Assembly (NCBI GenBank): GCA_041687695.1
Contig: JAWLBL010000013.1
Location: 64,001 to 128,000, forward strand
Length of the DNA: 64,000 nt
Source: Myxococcota bacterium
GTDB taxonomy: Bacteria > Myxococcota_A > UBA9042 > PHBI01 > JAWLBL01
Direction: 5' to 3'
The position numbers and the translations under genes were made by a program. Below are positions 50,632 to 60,829 of this stretch, in pieces. The number at the start of each line of letters is the position of its first letter. The first letter of the stretch is position 1. A model generated the notes under the pieces. That model was not told where the DNA came from, did not search any database, and saw only the letters and a program-made list of their open reading frames with translations.

Positions 50632-50780
50632 CCCGGCGCCCGTCGGTGTAGACCCCAGCGGGTCGGCAGGGTAGATAGGGGCGGCGGTACGCGGGGTCGG
50701 GTGCCGCGGCCGCGCGCGAGGTGGCGTCGCGGCCTCGCGTGCCAGCGCTTTGCCTCGTCATCCCCCCAGGGAGCCCGTCC

Positions 50781-51311
<531 letters not shown>

Positions 51312-51347
51312 CGGCGCCGCCCCGCGACGGCACGGGCGGCGCGCCTG

Positions 51348-51998
51348 ATGGAGCTGACCTTCAACGGACACGCCTGCGTGACGCTGCGCGGCGCGTCCGG
51401 TCCGGTCGTCGTCATGGACCCCTACCGATCGGGGGCGCTCGGCGGCCGCATCCGCCACCGGCCGTTGGTGGTGCCGGCCGACGTCGTCACCGTCTCGCAC
51501 TGGCACGTCGACCACAGCCACGTCACCGAGGCCCTCGGCGCCCCCGAGGTCGTCGCCCGCAGCGGCCGCGCCGCCGGCCTCGACTTCACCCTGCGCCCGA
51601 CCTACCACGACCGCGACGGCGGGGTGCGCATGGGCCTGACCAGCATGACGGCCTTCACCCTCGACGGCCTGCGCGTCGTCCACCTCGGCGACCTGGGCTG
51701 CGACCTCACCGCCGACGACGTCGCCGCCCTCGGCCCCGTCGACGTCCTGCTCTGGCCGGTCGGCGGCGTCTACACCGTCGGCCCCGAGGACGCGCCACGC
51801 CTCCTGGCCCAGCTCCGGCCGCGCCTGGCCATCCCGATGCACTACGAGAGCCACGGCTGCCAGCTCGGCCTCGCCCCGGTCGAGGCGCTCGCGCCCCACT
51901 GGTCCGGCGCGCACCGGCGCCCCGGCGTCAGCGCCTGGTCCAGCGCCGACGGCCTGCCCGACGAGACGACCGTGCTGGTGCTCGAGCCGGCGCTCTGA
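51348..51998 (+). CDS. MBL-fold metallo-hydrolase
   Basis: GHAC, MDPY, VTVSHWHVDHS, YHD, VHLGDLG, PVGGVYT, IPMHY. Confidence 0.88.
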   Translation: MELTFNGHACVTLRGASGPVVVMDPYRSGALGGRIRHRPLVVPADVVTVSHWHVDHSHVTEALGAPEVVARSGRAAGLDFTLRPTYHDRDGGVRMGLTSMTAFTLDGLRVVHLGDLGCDLTADDVAALGPVDVLLWPVGGVYTVGPEDAPRLLAQLRPRLAIPMHYESHGCQLGLAPVEALAPHWSGAHRRPGVSAWSSADGLPDETTVLVLEPAL

Positions 51999-52090
51999 AC
52001 CTCTCGTTCGCGCCGGCGGCGCCTGCCGCGCGGGGCGCGCTGCACGCGACGCAGTGGCCGCCAGCGTCGCGTCGATCGCAACGTCGGGGC

Positions 52091-52119
52091 TTGCCCCGAG
52101 GTACGTCGGGCGCTACCTT
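52091..52119 (+). promoter_or_regulatory. Candidate sigma70 promoter for the ABC-F leader
   Basis: TTGCCC-17 bp-TACCTT. Confidence 0.55.
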
Positions 52120-52146
52120 CGGCCGACATCACGGAGGACCCCACCC

Positions 52147-52158
52147 TTGAAGAACTGA
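52147..52158 (+). CDS. Candidate 3-codon regulatory uORF (M-K-N)
   Basis: TTG AAG AAC TGA with GGAGG SD (52133-52137) 9 nt upstream. Confidence 0.6.
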   Translation: MKN

Positions 52159-52221
52159 GCTCGCTGCCCCGGGAACGGCCGACGCGTTCGGCCCGCCATC
52201 TTCCCTGAACCGCAGGAGCTC
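52157..52221 (+). promoter_or_regulatory. Candidate translational attenuator hairpin sequestering the ABC-F SD
   Basis: gagctc-g-ctgc (52157-67) pairs with gcag-gagctc (52212-21) which contains AGGAG; inner stems gggaa/ttccc and ggccga/tcggcc. Confidence 0.6.
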
Positions 52222-52225
52222 CCTC

Positions 52226-53736
<1,511 letters not shown>

Positions 53737-53740
<4 letters not shown>

Positions 53741-54999
53741 AAGTTCAGGACCACGGCGCCGGTGCCGTTGTTCGCGAAGGGCGGCGGCCGCTCGTCGTCG
53801 CTCAGGGCGATGGCGGCCACGGTCCCGGCGCCGACGACGCCGACCACCGCGGTCCAGAACCACCACTTGCCCAGCACGCTGCCGCCGCCGCCGGCGGACG
53901 GGCCCGGGCCGGCCACCGCGCCCAGCGCCGCCGCGTAATCGAACTCGAGCAGCTGCGCCACGGCCTGCCGCACGGCCTCGCGGTTGCGGAAGCTCCAGTC
54001 GATCGGCACCGTGACCCGGTTGAGCAGCCGCTGGGAGGCCGTGTCGAACATTACCATGTCGACCTCCTTGGCCTCCTCGGGGCCGGTGACGCGCACGATC
54101 ACGCCGACCTCGCTGAACAGCAGCGAGCCGACCTGCCGCACGGCGTCGCCTCCCTTGGTGTTGCCGCTGCCGAGGGCGTCGAGCTCGCGGGCGAGGTCCG
54201 CCTCGAGCTGGTCGAGGACCAGCTTCTTGCGGGCGGCGGGCAGGTTGAGCTCGGAGCGGACCAGGCCGCGCGAGCTGATCGTGACCTGCGCGGTCAGGCG
54301 CTCGTAGCCGAGCTTCTCGACGGTCACGAGGTGCTGCCCTTCGCGCAGGCCCGCGACGGTGGTCGGGCTGATGCCGCGATAACGCCCGTCGACGTAGACC
54401 TCGGCGTACTCGGGCTCCGTGATGACCTCGACCGCGCCGAGCGGGCGCGCGTTCACCTTGGCCTGCGCGGCCTCCCAGGCGGCCTTGGCCTCGGCGGAGA
54501 GCTTGACGCCGCTGGCGTCGGCGCGGTGCAGGGCGGCGCGCTCGAAGGCCTGCGCCGCGCCGGCGGCGTCGCCGTTGGCCAGGCGCGCCGCGCCGAGCTG
54601 CAGCAGCGCCTTGTCGTACTGCTCGGGCTCGGGCAGCAGGGCGTAGGCGGTCTCCATCAGCCGGGCCGCGCTCTCGAACTGCAGCGAGGCCTCGTCGGGG
54701 TCCCCCGCCTCCAACGCGGCGCCGCCCGCGCGATAGAACGCCTGCGCCGTCTTGATGTTGTTGCGCGCCTCGACCTCGCCGCCGGCGTTGAGCACCGAGT
54801 CGATGTCCTTGACGGCGTAGCCGACGCTGTCGTCGATGGCCTCGACGATCTCGTGGACCAGCTCGGCGTGGGCGCGGGTGTCGCTGGACAGGTCGACGAC
54901 GGCGACCTCGCGGACGCTCTGCGAGCCCGGCGGTGCGGCGTGGGCGGTGAGGGCGAGGGGGAGGAGGAGCAGGGGGCTCACGAGCAGGAGCTTGTTCAT
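53737..54999 (-). CDS. PEGA-domain protein with TPR-like helices and C-terminal membrane anchor
   Basis: Signal peptide, helical repeats, VITEPEYAEVYVDG...G.H.V.VEKLGY PEGA motif, KWWFWT C-terminal segment. Confidence 0.82.
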
Positions 55000-56780: not shown

Positions 56781-59777
56781 ATGGGTCATGCTCGCGTGAA
56801 CATTACGCTCGTCAGAAGAGAGTCGGACACCGGCCTGCTGCTTTGGGCCGACGACGAGGCCGCGCTGCCGCGCCTGCTGCGCAGCGCCTTCTCGCGCGGA
56901 CGCTGGCTCGAGGGCGTCGACCTCGTCGCCCCCGGCAAGGACGGCAAGCCGGGCGTCGCCTCGGTCGACGGGTTCTGGCTCAGCGCCTCGCGCGCCGCCG
57001 CCGCGCTCGCGACCGTGCCGCTCGGTGAGCTGCGCGGGATGACTGCGTCGGTGTCGGTCTGGACGCTGGCGTCGAAGTGGGTCGTCGAGGCGATCGCCCG
57101 CCAGCAGCTGGTCTTCACGCTCGATCCGCAGACCGATCCCGGTCGCTGTCGGGCCCGCTGGCGGGTCGCGCCGGTGCGCCCCGAGGACCGCAGCCGCCTC
57201 GCCGGCCTCGCCGCCAGCCTGCCCGGCGTGGCGCGGGCCTGCCCGGTCGACCCCAAGAGGGACAAGGTCCTCGGCGCTGGCGCGGCGCTCCACGAGTTCA
57301 TGGACGCCGCGGTGGACGGCCTGCTACGCGCGTCGACGCCCGAGACGGCGGCGCTGCCCGGAGAGGGGCCGGCCTGGATCGGGCGCCTGGCGCGGGCGCT
57401 CAACGGCCCCGACGGAGAGGTCGTCCTGCAGGGGCTGGCCGAGCGGAATCTGCCCAGCGCCATCGGGCAGTGGGTCGGCCCGGCCGTCACGCTGTCGGGG
57501 ACCGGGCGGCCGGCGGTCGGCTTCCGGCTCGAAGAGCCGAAGTCCGGCGAGAGCGACTGGCGGGTCACCTTCCATCTGACCAGCGCTTCGGGCGATGTGC
57601 GGATACCCGTGTCCGAATTGAAGGCCGGTCGCACGGGCGCCAAGGAGGCTGCCGCGCGAATGTCGCGTCCCGAGGAGACGCTCCTCGAGGCGCTGGCGCG
57701 GTGCGTCCGGGTCTTCCCGCCCATCGAGCGGTGTCTGTCGGAGAAGCTGCCAGGGGAGGTCGTCGTCGATGCCGCCGAGGCCTGGCTCTTTCTGACCAAG
57801 GCCAGCATCCAGCTCGAGCGCGCCGGGTATTACGTCGAGGTGCCCGCCGCGCTCTCGAAGGTCGGGCGACGCCGGGTGCGCGCGAGAATGCGGTTGGGAG
57901 TGCAGCCCAAGCGCTCGAAGGACGCGGCCGCGGCGCCGAACGGGCGCTCGGGGCTGCTCGCGGGCCTCATCCAGTATCAGTGGGAGGCGAGCCTCGGCGA
58001 CGACGCGTTGACCCCCGAGGAGTTCCACAAGCTCGCCGCGTCCAAGGCCCCGCTCATCCTGCACCGTGGCCACTGGGTCGCGGTCGATCCCGACGACGTG
58101 CAGCGGCTCGAGGCCCTGATGAAGGAGGGCGGCGGCTCGCTCGAGGCGGCCGAGGCCCTGCGGCTGGCGTTGGCCGGGCAGGTGCCGGTGCCGGAGGCCG
58201 TCGAGGTGTCCGCGGACGTGGTGACCGACGGGGCCGTGACGCGCGCGCTCGAGGCGCTCAAGGAGGGCATCGAGGGCGAGCTGCCCGAGATGGACCCGCC
58301 CGAGGGGCTCAACGCCGAGCTCAGGCCCTATCAGCTGCGCGGCTTCCGCTGGCTGTATCAGGTCAATTCCACGGGGCTCGGCGCCTGCCTCGCGGACGAC
58401 ATGGGCCTGGGCAAGACGGTGCAGGTCCTGGCCGAGATGCAGCAGATTGCCAACGAGGGCGGTCCGGCGCGCTTCCTGGTGGTCTGCCCTACCAGCGTCA
58501 TCGGCAACTGGCGCCGCGAGATCCGGCGGTTCTGCCCGCAAATGACGGTCGTGGTGCATCACGGCCCGTCGCGCGCCGGCAGTCTCAAAGAGCTACACCG
58601 CAGGTTGGACGGCAAGGATCCCGAGAGCCCCGGGGTGCTCGTGACGAGTTACGCGCTCGCGCGAGGCGACCAGGATCTGCTCAAGGAGATCACGTTCGAC
58701 ATCGTCGTGCTCGACGAGGCCCAGAACATCAAGAACCCCGACACCGCGCAGAGCCAGGCGGTCCGAAGGCTCGCCGCGCGGCGGCGGGTGGCGCTGACGG
58801 GCACTCCGGTCGAGAATCGCCTGAGCGAGCTCTGGTCCATCATGGACTTCGTCAATCCCCGCCTGCTGGGGTCGCGCAACGCGTTCAAGAACACCTTCTC
58901 GGTGCCCATCGAGCGCTACGGGGACAAAGACGCGGCGGAGCTGCTGAGGAAGGTGACGGCGCCGTTCATTTTGAGACGCCTCAAGACCGACCCCGCCATC
59001 GTCCCCGAGCTGCCCGAGAAGTCCGAGAGCGTGCGCTTCTGCCCGCTCACCCTCGAGCAGGCGAGCCTGTACCAGGCGGCCATCGACCGGGGCATGCAGG
59101 AGATTCAGGGGCTGGCCCAGGGCATGCAGCGGCGCGGCCGCATCCTCAAGATGCTCACCGAGCTCAAGCAGATCTGCAACCACCCCGCGCAGTTCCTGCG
59201 GGATGGCAATATGAGCCCGCGGCGGTCGGGCAAATTGACACGCTTCGTCGAGCTGCTCGACGAGATCCTCGACAGCCAGGGCCACGCCCTGGTGTTCACG
59301 CAGTACCGTGAGATGGGCGAGATCCTGTCCGCGGTCATCACCGAGCGCTTCCGGATGCCCGCGCCGTTCTTGCACGGCGGGCTGTCGCGGAACGCGCGCG
59401 AGGAGATGGTCGCGGCCTTCCAGGAGCGGCACGGGCCGCCCGTGCTCGTGGTCTCGCTGCGCGCGGGCGGCACGGGCCTGAACCTGGTCCGCGCCAACCA
59501 CGTCTTCCACTACGACCGGTGGTGGAACCCGGCGGTCGAGGATCAGGCGACCGACCGCGCGTTCCGCATCGGTCAGACGCGCGACGTTACGGTTCACCGG
59601 ATGGTGTCGCAGGGCACGCTGGAGGAGCACATCCACCAGCTGCTCGAGGAGAAGCGACACCTGGCCGACAAAGTCATCGGGACGGGTGAGACATGGCTAT
59701 CGGAGCTCGACGACGAGACCCTTGGGCAGCTGGTGTCGCTGGGGCAGGACGCGGTCCTCGAGGAGGAGGAGCCGTGA
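56781..59777 (+). CDS. SNF2-family helicase-like ATPase (YwqA/HelZ-like, with DUF3670-like region)
   Basis: LRPYQLRG, LADDMGLGKT, LDEAQNIKN, LTGTPVENRL, LKQICNHP, GGTGLNL, DRWWNPAVEDQATDRAFRIGQ. Confidence 0.94.
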   Translation: MGHARVNITLVRRESDTGLLLWADDEAALPRLLRSAFSRGRWLEGVDLVAPGKDGKPGVASVDGFWLSASRAAAALATVPLGELRGMTASVSVWTLASKWVVEAIARQQLVFTLDPQTDPGRCRARWRVAPVRPEDRSRLAGLAASLPGVARACPVDPKRDKVLGAGAALHEFMDAAVDGLLRASTPETAALPGEGPAWIGRLARALNGPDGEVVLQGLAERNLPSAIGQWVGPAVTLSGTGRPAVGFRLEEPKSGESDWRVTFHLTSASGDVRIPVSELKAGRTGAKEAAARMSRPEETLLEALARCVRVFPPIERCLSEKLPGEVVVDAAEAWLFLTKASIQLERAGYYVEVPAALSKVGRRRVRARMRLGVQPKRSKDAAAAPNGRSGLLAGLIQYQWEASLGDDALTPEEFHKLAASKAPLILHRGHWVAVDPDDVQRLEALMKEGGGSLEAAEALRLALAGQVPVPEAVEVSADVVTDGAVTRALEALKEGIEGELPEMDPPEGLNAELRPYQLRGFRWLYQVNSTGLGACLADDMGLGKTVQVLAEMQQIANEGGPARFLVVCPTSVIGNWRREIRRFCPQMTVVVHHGPSRAGSLKELHRRLDGKDPESPGVLVTSYALARGDQDLLKEITFDIVVLDEAQNIKNPDTAQSQAVRRLAARRRVALTGTPVENRLSELWSIMDFVNPRLLGSRNAFKNTFSVPIERYGDKDAAELLRKVTAPFILRRLKTDPAIVPELPEKSESVRFCPLTLEQASLYQAAIDRGMQEIQGLAQGMQRRGRILKMLTELKQICNHPAQFLRDGNMSPRRSGKLTRFVELLDEILDSQGHALVFTQYREMGEILSAVITERFRMPAPFLHGGLSRNAREEMVAAFQERHGPPVLVVSLRAGGTGLNLVRANHVFHYDRWWNPAVEDQATDRAFRIGQTRDVTVHRMVSQGTLEEHIHQLLEEKRHLADKVIGTGETWLSELDDETLGQLVSLGQDAVLEEEEP

Positions 59778-60829
59778 GCACGTCGGCCTCCCTGGCCGAC
59801 CGCTGGCTCGAGCCCATCATCTCCTCGAGCGAGCTGCGCGTGCAGGTGCGCCGCGGCAAGGTGATGGCGCGCAAGAACTGGGTCGAGAACCTGACGGTGC
59901 GGCCCGGGCTCATCACGGCGGATGTGCGCAACGACATCGGGGGGACCAACAGCGTCCGCATCCGGCAGTCGCACATCGACGACGCCCTGTGGGAGAAGGT
60001 GCTCGACCGCTTCGCGGGAGAGGGCGGCTTCGCGGCGAACCTGCTCGCGGGGCGCGTCACCGGCGAGATGCTCGACGTGTTCGACGAGGTCGGCGTCGAC
60101 CTCATCTGGTACTCGGTGCGAAGCGACGTCAGCAACTTCTGCACCTGCCGCGAGGACGCGCAGGTCTGCACGCACGCGGTGGCCGCGCACTTCGCGCTGG
60201 CCGACACGTTCACGGCCGACCCGTTCGTGCTCTTCGAGTTCCGTGGGCGGTCCAAGGACCAGATCCTCGAGGCGCTGCGCAAGCGGCGCCGCGCCGGAGA
60301 GGGGGCCGAGGGCGGCAAGGAGGCCGAGGGCGCCGCGGACTCGGGGCTCGAGCCGGCGGGAGAGGTCGTCGAGGGGTATTGGGAGCGCGGGGTGGTGCCT
60401 CACCTGGCGTTCCGGTTCGACGCCAAGGAGCTCGCGGGCGAGGAGACCATGCCGGTGCTGCGGGCGCTCGGCCCGGGCCCCGGCGAGACGTCCCCCGACG
60501 CCTTCGCGCAGGTGCTGGCGCCCATCGCCCGGCTCGCCCGGACGCGGCTCGAGGAGCTGCTCGAGCAGCTGGCCGAGGACGAGGCTCCAGGCGCCCCCGA
60601 CGTGACGCAGGCGGAGTCGCTGGACGATCTGCTGTACGCGGCCGCCGTCCAGCACGGCGAGTTGACGAGCTCGTTCGTCGCCGAGGCGCTGGGCATCAGC
60701 CAGATCGAGGCGCGTCGCTATCTGCAGTGGCTGGTCGAGGAGGGCCGCCTCGCGGTGGTCGGCCGCGCGCGCGGCACCAAGTACGTCCCGGTGATCGAGG
60801 CCGAGGAGCGCACGTCCGAAGAGCTCTGA
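59774..60829 (+). CDS. SWIM zinc-finger protein with C-terminal winged-HTH
   Basis: GTG overlaps SNF2 stop; CTC-x6-CTH SWIM motif, DPFVLFEFRG; C-terminal VAEALGISQIEARRYLQWLVEEGRL...RGTKY. Confidence 0.85.
   Translation: MSTSASLADRWLEPIISSSELRVQVRRGKVMARKNWVENLTVRPGLITADVRNDIGGTNSVRIRQSHIDDALWEKVLDRFAGEGGFAANLLAGRVTGEMLDVFDEVGVDLIWYSVRSDVSNFCTCREDAQVCTHAVAAHFALADTFTADPFVLFEFRGRSKDQILEALRKRRRAGEGAEGGKEAEGAADSGLEPAGEVVEGYWERGVVPHLAFRFDAKELAGEETMPVLRALGPGPGETSPDAFAQVLAPIARLARTRLEELLEQLAEDEAPGAPDVTQAESLDDLLYAAAVQHGELTSSFVAEALGISQIEARRYLQWLVEEGRLAVVGRARGTKYVPVIEAEERTSEEL

Follow-up and report, generated by a model that had tools for sequence, protein, structure and literature searches.

Does a three-codon reading frame upstream of an ABC-F ATPase gene sense stalled ribosomes and, if so, at which step and in response to what? 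The question is raised by a locus in a 64,000-nt stretch of DNA from a Myxococcota bacterium (hereafter the window), in which a micro-upstream open reading frame (uORF) runs into one arm of a stem whose other arm contains the Shine-Dalgarno sequence (SD) of the ABC-F gene. We read the locus as a ribosome-stall-sensing translational attenuator that would switch on a likely ribosome-protecting ABC-F protein. We give this reading in full, with antibiotics as the signal, a probability of roughly 0.65.

Anatomy of the leader in the window

The leader and its gene are made up of the following features.

52091..52119, + strand: predicted promoter-like element, -35 TTGCCC (52091-96), 17 nt, -10 TACCTT (52114-19)
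52128..52137, + strand: region with the uORF SD, GGAGG (52133-37), doubling as the 5' strand of an outer helix with 52222-52230
52147..52158, + strand: micro-uORF TTG AAG AAC TGA (M-K-N), predicted ribosome-stall sensor
52157..52167, + strand: anti-SD arm (5' arm), +11 to +21 relative to the uORF start, assigned from the fold
52168..52211, + strand: inner hairpins separating the two arms, variable, with poorly conserved length and sequence
52212..52230, + strand: 3' arm (52212-21) with the AGGAG SD (52214-18), plus the GTG start; predicted to be hidden when the switch is off
52226..53740, + strand: ABC-F ATPase, 504 aa, GTG start at 52226

Every element named in a preliminary description of this DNA (promoter hexamers, GGAGG, TTG AAG AAC TGA, both arms, AGGAG and GTG) is present at these positions. 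The minimum free energy and centroid structures of the window leader (RNAfold) both contain exactly the 52157-67/52212-21 stem, so the fold given there stands, but it had overlooked the outer helix. In this helix, 52128-33 pairs with 52225-30, which includes the ABC-F start codon, and 52135-37 pairs with 52222-24; the uORF's own SD region is thus predicted to be base-paired with the ABC-F start. An outer helix of at least three expected pairs recurs in 35 of 78 homolog leaders and, within the Myxococcaceae set, in 6 of 29.

The leader is about 100 nt long, and one main helix joins the uORF directly to the SD. Release values throughout are folding predictions that use an assumed ribosome footprint of -12 to +16 on the uORF start. 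With this footprint in place, the predicted cost of opening the ABC-F start in the window falls from 20.4 kcal/mol in the free leader to 10.6 kcal/mol, a release of 9.8 kcal/mol; for a transcript starting at 52126 it falls from 16.3 to 9.0 kcal/mol. The predicted cost stays at 9-10 kcal/mol despite the ribosome because the outer helix persists.

By itself, the window leader carries no signal above chance: its fold z-score is -0.85, and 39 of 200 shuffles fold equally well. Such a score agrees with a reading in which the uORF is a coincidence and the stem either damps a toxic ATPase statically or reflects fortuitous pairing in GC-rich DNA. The excess over chance described below comes from the homolog leaders, not from the window sequence. 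A sigma-70 scan gave 0 promoter sites and did not accept the TTGCCC/TACCTT element; the hexamers proposed earlier are there, but as a promoter they are plausible at the family level only. The terminator scan found no terminator-like site within 51000-54500, in line with the lack of a terminator U-tract noted earlier, and an Rfam search of the window leader matched no relevant family.

Upstream of the ABC-F gene (50721-51998, + strand) are genes for an HGPRTase, which passes TIGR01203, and a metallo-beta-lactamase-fold hydrolase, neither of them a conserved neighbor of the family. A convergent gene for a PEGA-domain protein (53737-54999, - strand) has a stop that overlaps the ABC-F stop by 4 nt. 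Further along (56781-60829, + strand) lies a 998-aa protein that we take to be an SNF2-type helicase, followed by a 378-aa protein, presumably SWIM-like.

Conservation and controls across the ABC-F family

Homologs were taken from 139 loci (L001, L081-L138 and 80 of 119 metagenome matches with flanks). An N-terminal match was found in 130; nine were dropped for short DNA or lack of a start call and 16 were redundant, leaving 105 leaders including that of the window. A genome homology search was swamped by generic DEPTNHLD matches, so that only 2 of its 80 loci were true family members, and the other 78 served as controls.

A uORF of 2-7 codons is found in 101 of the 105 non-redundant leaders, and in 78 of the 105 the predicted cost of opening the ABC-F start drops by 4 kcal/mol or more once a ribosome sits on the best uORF start. 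The same release rule was passed by 5.4% of 630 shuffles and by 13 of 400 genes of the window genome, these being drawn from 1242 crudely called genes with starts likewise assigned by a crude rule. Among the ABC-F control loci (78, of which 13 were not measurable), whose starts were also called crudely, 4 of the 60 short-linker genes and 1 of the 5 long-linker genes passed, and so did 0 of 4 other ABC-Fs of the window genome. A duplex test that is blind to the uORF, and crude and insensitive enough to miss the window's own stem, was positive in 52 of 105 leaders versus 8.9 expected. On the terminator-type leaders of vga(A) and msr(A) the release test gave 1.6 and 0 kcal/mol, which means that it does not serve as an ARE detector in general.

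The lengths of the uORFs, counted with no folding filter, peak at three codons (41 uORFs) and five codons (52), against about 10.5 each in shuffles; uORFs longer than seven codons occur near the shuffle background. An SD-like word precedes 40 of 78 uORFs. The arms differ in sequence between lineages while their complementarity is kept: Sorangium So ce26 has the same anatomy in other letters, with a uORF encoding MKISS and a perfect 12-bp stem. The exceptions are 27 of 105 leaders below 4 kcal/mol and 4 of 105 without a micro-uORF. Family members that have no micro-uORF leader are L088, L086, L132, L217 and L304; in L088, a TATAAT about 25 nt before the ABC-F start suggests leader loss. One assembly (G268) holds near-identical copies of gene and leader on C20 and C21 (L099 and L136), either real or an assembly duplicate.

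The Myxococcaceae set comprised 31 loci, of which two were left out, one without upstream DNA and one (L304) without a recognizable leader. All 29 aligned leaders have an in-frame five-codon uORF that begins with TTG or GTG and in no case with ATG, and the predicted release is at least 4 kcal/mol in 26 of them. A 12-pair stem, read by eye from these same sequences, has 85.3% of cells paired and 11 two-sided changes versus 4.4 in shuffles, a covariation that kinship inflates and that falls in only 2 of the 12 pairs. RNAalifold, run on the MAFFT alignment of these leaders, gave no consensus structure, for which gaps and a bulge that changes position are the probable cause.

This RNAalifold result and the occurrence of some micro-uORF in 131 of the 400 control genes speak, like the window z-score, for a static or accidental stem. 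Against such a stem are the near-universal uORF with its two length peaks, the frame that is intact in 29 of 29 Myxococcaceae leaders, and the fixed distance between the arm and the uORF start (see below). We regard a static or accidental stem as highly improbable. The sequences by themselves show that the uORF is present, that the arms are complementary, that these features persist in most homologs, that the protein has a long linker and that intrinsic terminators are rare. Comparison of the leaders confirms the micro-uORF with a predicted SD-sequestering stem as a trait of this ABC-F family and supports the preliminary description's proposal of a uORF-controlled stem, mostly without an intrinsic terminator; the search it had suggested, for a uORF and stem upstream of homologues, had a positive outcome. 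It is very likely, given these comparisons, that the switch is real and translational.

At the level of transcription, a TTG-N16-18-YAnnnT pattern, written post hoc after examples had been seen, occurs in 26 of 78 homologs within the 110 nt that precede the uORF, versus 1.4% of shuffles. Strict terminator-like sites are present in 3 of 78 leaders, and a loose rule flags 22 of 78. Two leaders of the MRK subgroup (L141 and L146) have an inner 8-9-bp hairpin and a U-tract just before the SD, with a stem ending at -21, possibly an added terminator layer. In L095, the uORF (MIKQHS) begins 7 nt past a -10-like hexamer and is thus probably leaderless.

Expression was examined in one raw-read RNA run (X24; condition unknown, usual stranded library assumed) on L275, a locus whose protein is 99% identical to ABF92474.1 of Myxococcus xanthus and whose genome carries the leader. 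The upstream gene is covered at a depth of 126-228 and ends sharply on its 3' side at 1289. Over the leader, the depth drops from 67 to 35; in the gene it is mostly 20-37, near the level of the opposite strand, and two bins near 74 gather paralog reads. No sharp transcript end was seen within the L275 leader in this run, and the depth profile fits low basal expression without an intrinsic terminator.

What the uORF may sense and which protein it precedes

The encoded peptides differ from leader to leader (MKN, MKISS, MIQTRF, MINRNC, MID, MRK, MTPHS, MAGESI, MK, MR), which means that M-K-N, the peptide named earlier, is no motif. At position 2, R (28%), T (16%) and K (11%) are more frequent than in shuffles (16%, 7% and 3%); beyond this bias, no conserved amino acid or codon run was found in the uORFs. 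An amino-acid-sensing or erm-type leader peptide was rejected, as there are no conserved regulatory codons and no arrest motif. TTG or GTG is the start codon in 38 of 78 selected uORFs.

In folds computed without reference to the uORF, 73 of 105 leaders show long-range pairing of the SD core. For the 40 leaders with a single upstream ORF, these folds place the anti-SD about 16-17 nt (17 +/- 7) from the uORF start, whatever the uORF length, and the offset has a slope of -0.82 +/- 0.62 nt per uORF codon, where anchoring at the stop predicts +3. This uORF-blind estimate replaces one selected with a start-codon footprint, which was circular. That the arm follows the start of the uORF and not its length points to start-codon arrest. 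The energetics do not single out the start codon, since the predicted median release is similar with the P site on codon 1, 2 or 3 (9.0, 8.9 and 8.5 kcal/mol).

The near-equality of these three values is also what would be expected if the uORF sensed slowed termination or recycling, or a context-specific elongation stall of the macrolide +X+ or phenicol type, rather than arrest at the start. The uORF stop codon often lies inside or beside the arm, and some uORFs contain R-L-R or have Thr, Ser or Ala at position 2, which are drug motifs, R-L-R being a macrolide arrest motif. Yet the arm tracks the start and not the stop, all three stop codons are used (40 TGA, 22 TAA and 16 TAG in 78 uORFs), two-codon uORFs exist and no residue is conserved. 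We consider a trigger of this later kind improbable, and hold it quite probable that the switch responds at or near the uORF start codon. The leader of L102 has an ATG-TAA start-stop frame just before the anti-SD arm, the shortest possible sensor. Three longer leaders (L113, L114 and L118) carry a uORF, MRLRRA, in which R-L-R occurs.

The protein belongs to the ABC-F ATPases, with two tandem NBDs, intact Walker A, Walker B and H-loop, a helical linker and no transmembrane domain. It passes no curated NCBIfam cut-off for the named ARE subfamilies (Vga, Msr, Lsa, Sal, CplR, TlrC/CarA) or for NF000355: the latter is its best profile (251.8 against a cut-off of 380), and the corresponding values are 180/680 for Msr, 165/725 for Vga, 128/780 for CplR and 127/750 for Lsa. 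A quick tree of 44 rows, which drew long-branch warnings and had no ARE2-5 or BAF references and no VmlR, places the family rows in a clade of their own (7 rows, SH-aLRT 100, stem length 2.31) outside Vga/Msr. Membership in the vmlR or vgaL subfamily, as the preliminary description might suggest, is not borne out by the cut-offs or by the position apart from Vga/Msr in this tree, which does not contain VmlR.

The same description's comparison with ARE proteins agrees with the linker. From H-loop1 to Walker A2, four of four family members span 177-182 residues, against 139 in EttA and 139-142 in paralogs from the same genome; the span is 150 in PoxtA2 and 170-174 in VgaL, VgaA and MsrA. The linker is about 40 residues longer than that of EttA, like those of resistance ABC-Fs, and ARE1-5 are characterized by an extended interdomain linker, about 30 aa over EttA (PMC6723617). 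Walker A1 and Walker B1 are 101 residues apart (147-149 in EttA and PoxtA2, 137-151 in the paralogs, 66-88 in VgaL and MsrA), which indicates a shortened arm region. An AlphaFold model (mean pLDDT 84.5, pTM 0.52) shows a hairpin of two long helices, 195-247 and 255-296, and at the linker tip the motif R-M-K-x-x-x-D-x-D-A-R is conserved, with D252 and R256 in 35 of 35 aligned sequences. The top Foldseek match is VmlR2, and LsaA, VmlR2 and Sal(B) have the lowest rmsd among bacterial matches; by E-value, EttA ranks second to fourth.

The best 120 relatives listed are 53-60% identical to the window protein; where a taxon name is given, it is almost always that of a myxobacterium. The M. xanthus DK1622 member is ABF92474.1, and a divergent branch has named matches in Acidimicrobiia. 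Family matches occur in 10 of 41 relatives, in 51 of 401 genomes of a phylum sample (with only three candidates scored per genome) and in 64 of 101 genomes of a Myxococcaceae-centered sample. ESM Atlas matches confirm an ABC-F only, and their taxa do not give the family range. A Sphingomonas sp. locus (L010) encodes a different long-linker ABC-F (177 residues), which joins the family by a long-branch link only; it has a micro-uORF (MISI) about 56 nt upstream of the ABC-F start and a predicted release of 5.3 kcal/mol. No neighbor family was shared by more than four ORFs across 39 loci, a 29-member cluster being the antisense frame of the ABC-F gene itself, and both conserved synteny and a link to a biosynthetic cluster were rejected. 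A plasmid search gave no match at 1e-20 and, at 1e-5, only distant ABC-Fs.

A chromosomal gene that is common within one family of bacteria, with no close plasmid copy and no conserved neighbors, could also be an autoregulating rescue factor like EttA, YbiT or YfmR. The switch would then be the same, and its trigger would be a non-antibiotic block of early elongation, such as energy state, cold or a shortage of EF-P or tRNA. YbiT and EttA are among the best PDB sequence matches, the R/K/T bias at uORF position 2 is in keeping with such a block, and at least two family members (Cystobacter WP_002632592.1 and Myxococcus WP_002640796.1, with ABC1 and ABC2 domains) are filed under YdiF, a group called polyphyletic, and not under an ARE subfamily (Murina et al. 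2019, PMC6723617, Table S2). On the other side, the housekeeping short-linker ABC-Fs mostly lack such leaders (the 4 of 60 above) and have linkers about 40 residues shorter, and the distribution in the phylum sample is patchy. The characterized micro-uORF ABC-Fs in the literature found, as far as the accessible text of these sources goes, are resistance factors (10.1101/2022.12.05.519065, PMC9226507, PMC12421871). We judge a rescue factor with a non-antibiotic trigger unlikely, and inducible resistance remains the preferred reading.

Proposed mechanism and comparison with known systems

In the attenuator that we propose, a ribosome in drug-free cells would initiate at the weak TTG, finish the three codons fast and leave; the stem would close once the 3' arm is transcribed, burying the ABC-F start signal. 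A start-arresting drug (a pleuromutilin, lincosamide or streptogramin A, or a myxobacterial compound such as myxovalargin), likely one that prevents the first peptide bonds from forming, would hold a ribosome at the start of the uORF. Covering about -12 to +16, this ribosome would prevent the 5' arm from pairing, and the ABC-F would be translated. From the E site, where it would bind next, the protein would push its linker in the direction of the peptidyl-transferase centre and clear the stall, and with the stall gone its own synthesis would be shut off.

We infer drug stalling, induction, E-site binding and feedback shut-off from work on vmlR, cplR and ARE5. LSAP drugs cause ribosomes to stall on the start codon of the TTG-initiated are5scL1 (PMC12421871), the vmlR uORF gives a toeprint at +16 (PMC9226507), and in a polyU mutant of cplR translational attenuation alone was enough to repress (10.1101/2022.12.05.519065). 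Myxovalargin, a drug of myxobacterial origin, keeps ribosomes at the start codon (PMC9853869) and is a candidate inducer. We regard it as likely that antibiotics are the natural trigger and that the ABC-F protects. A wider suggestion, more tentative and slightly short of an even chance, is that the family, common among predatory myxobacteria and extending to Acidimicrobiia, is a chromosomal ARE ABC-F subfamily that has gone unrecognized. It may confer intrinsic inducible protection against initiation-arresting drugs, possibly the bacteria's own myxovalargin or the antibiotics of prey, through a sensor that would be as simple as can be, one helix a ribosome footprint from any weak start codon, with neither peptide code nor terminator.

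A full-text search, mostly excluding subscription literature, returned no published description of this ABC-F family or its leader. In the literature found, genome-encoded uORF-induced ABC-F resistance is reported from Gram-positive bacteria only, and with the window family its range would come to include Gram-negative bacteria that prey on others in soil and produce antibiotics. The proposal is directly testable in a genetic model, since M. xanthus DK1622 encodes ABF92474.1. As the geometry is kept while the peptide varies, the collection of leaders amounts to a natural experiment on what a start-arrest sensor needs, and the leader flags candidate resistance ABC-Fs that current profiles leave unnamed.

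The family shares the conserved short uORF with its own ribosome-binding site that defines vmlR/cplR-type leaders, at 2-7 codons where the definition has 2-4. The SD-sequestering stem disrupted by a uORF ribosome, the second defining feature, is found here by prediction and comparison, with RNAalifold negative; the third, a regulated intrinsic terminator, is not found (0 in the window and few under the strict rule). The known uORF peptides are MIN for vmlR, MRI for cplR, MK[L/Q] for vmlR2 and MAGN for lsaA (10.1101/2022.12.05.519065), and the predicted peptides of the family resemble them.

The Clostridioides difficile cplR leader (MRI) also has a three-codon uORF and a stem sequestering the ABC-F SD. 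As described in the available text on it, this stem doubles as an intrinsic terminator with a U-tract, whereas strict terminators occur in only 3 of 78 leaders of the window family, and with 128 bits the window protein stays below the CplR cut-off of 780. Like the window, Bacillus subtilis vmlR (MIN) has a micro-uORF before a long-linker ABC-F and an SD-sequestering hairpin, but its leader is 219 nt with four hairpins and features an antiterminator, a pause and a terminator, and induction is affected by the uORF sequence, whereas the peptides of the window family vary freely (PMC9226507). Streptomyces ARE5 leaders, are5scL1 (MLV, TTG start) and tiaAL, share a high-GC host and a TTG-initiated three-codon uORF; the control described for them is by terminator and antiterminator (PMC12421871), and our tree contained no ARE5 sequence. 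The window clade departs from the YdiF catch-all (PMC6723617) in its short arm region, its long linker and a leader of its own. In Gram-negative E. coli, the uORF toiL governs occlusion of the topAI ribosome-binding site without an intrinsic terminator and responds to several ribosome-targeting drugs, but it controls a toxin-antitoxin gene, not an ABC-F, and ribosomes stall at different toiL positions (PMC12121999). The logic of the attenuator is thus already known, in SD sequestration at cplR and in toiL as a Gram-negative uORF/RBS drug sensor. What appears to be new, judged by sequence comparison, is a sensor made of one helix, indifferent to the peptide and mostly free of terminators, that precedes the genes of an unnamed myxobacterial clade of long-linker ABC-Fs.
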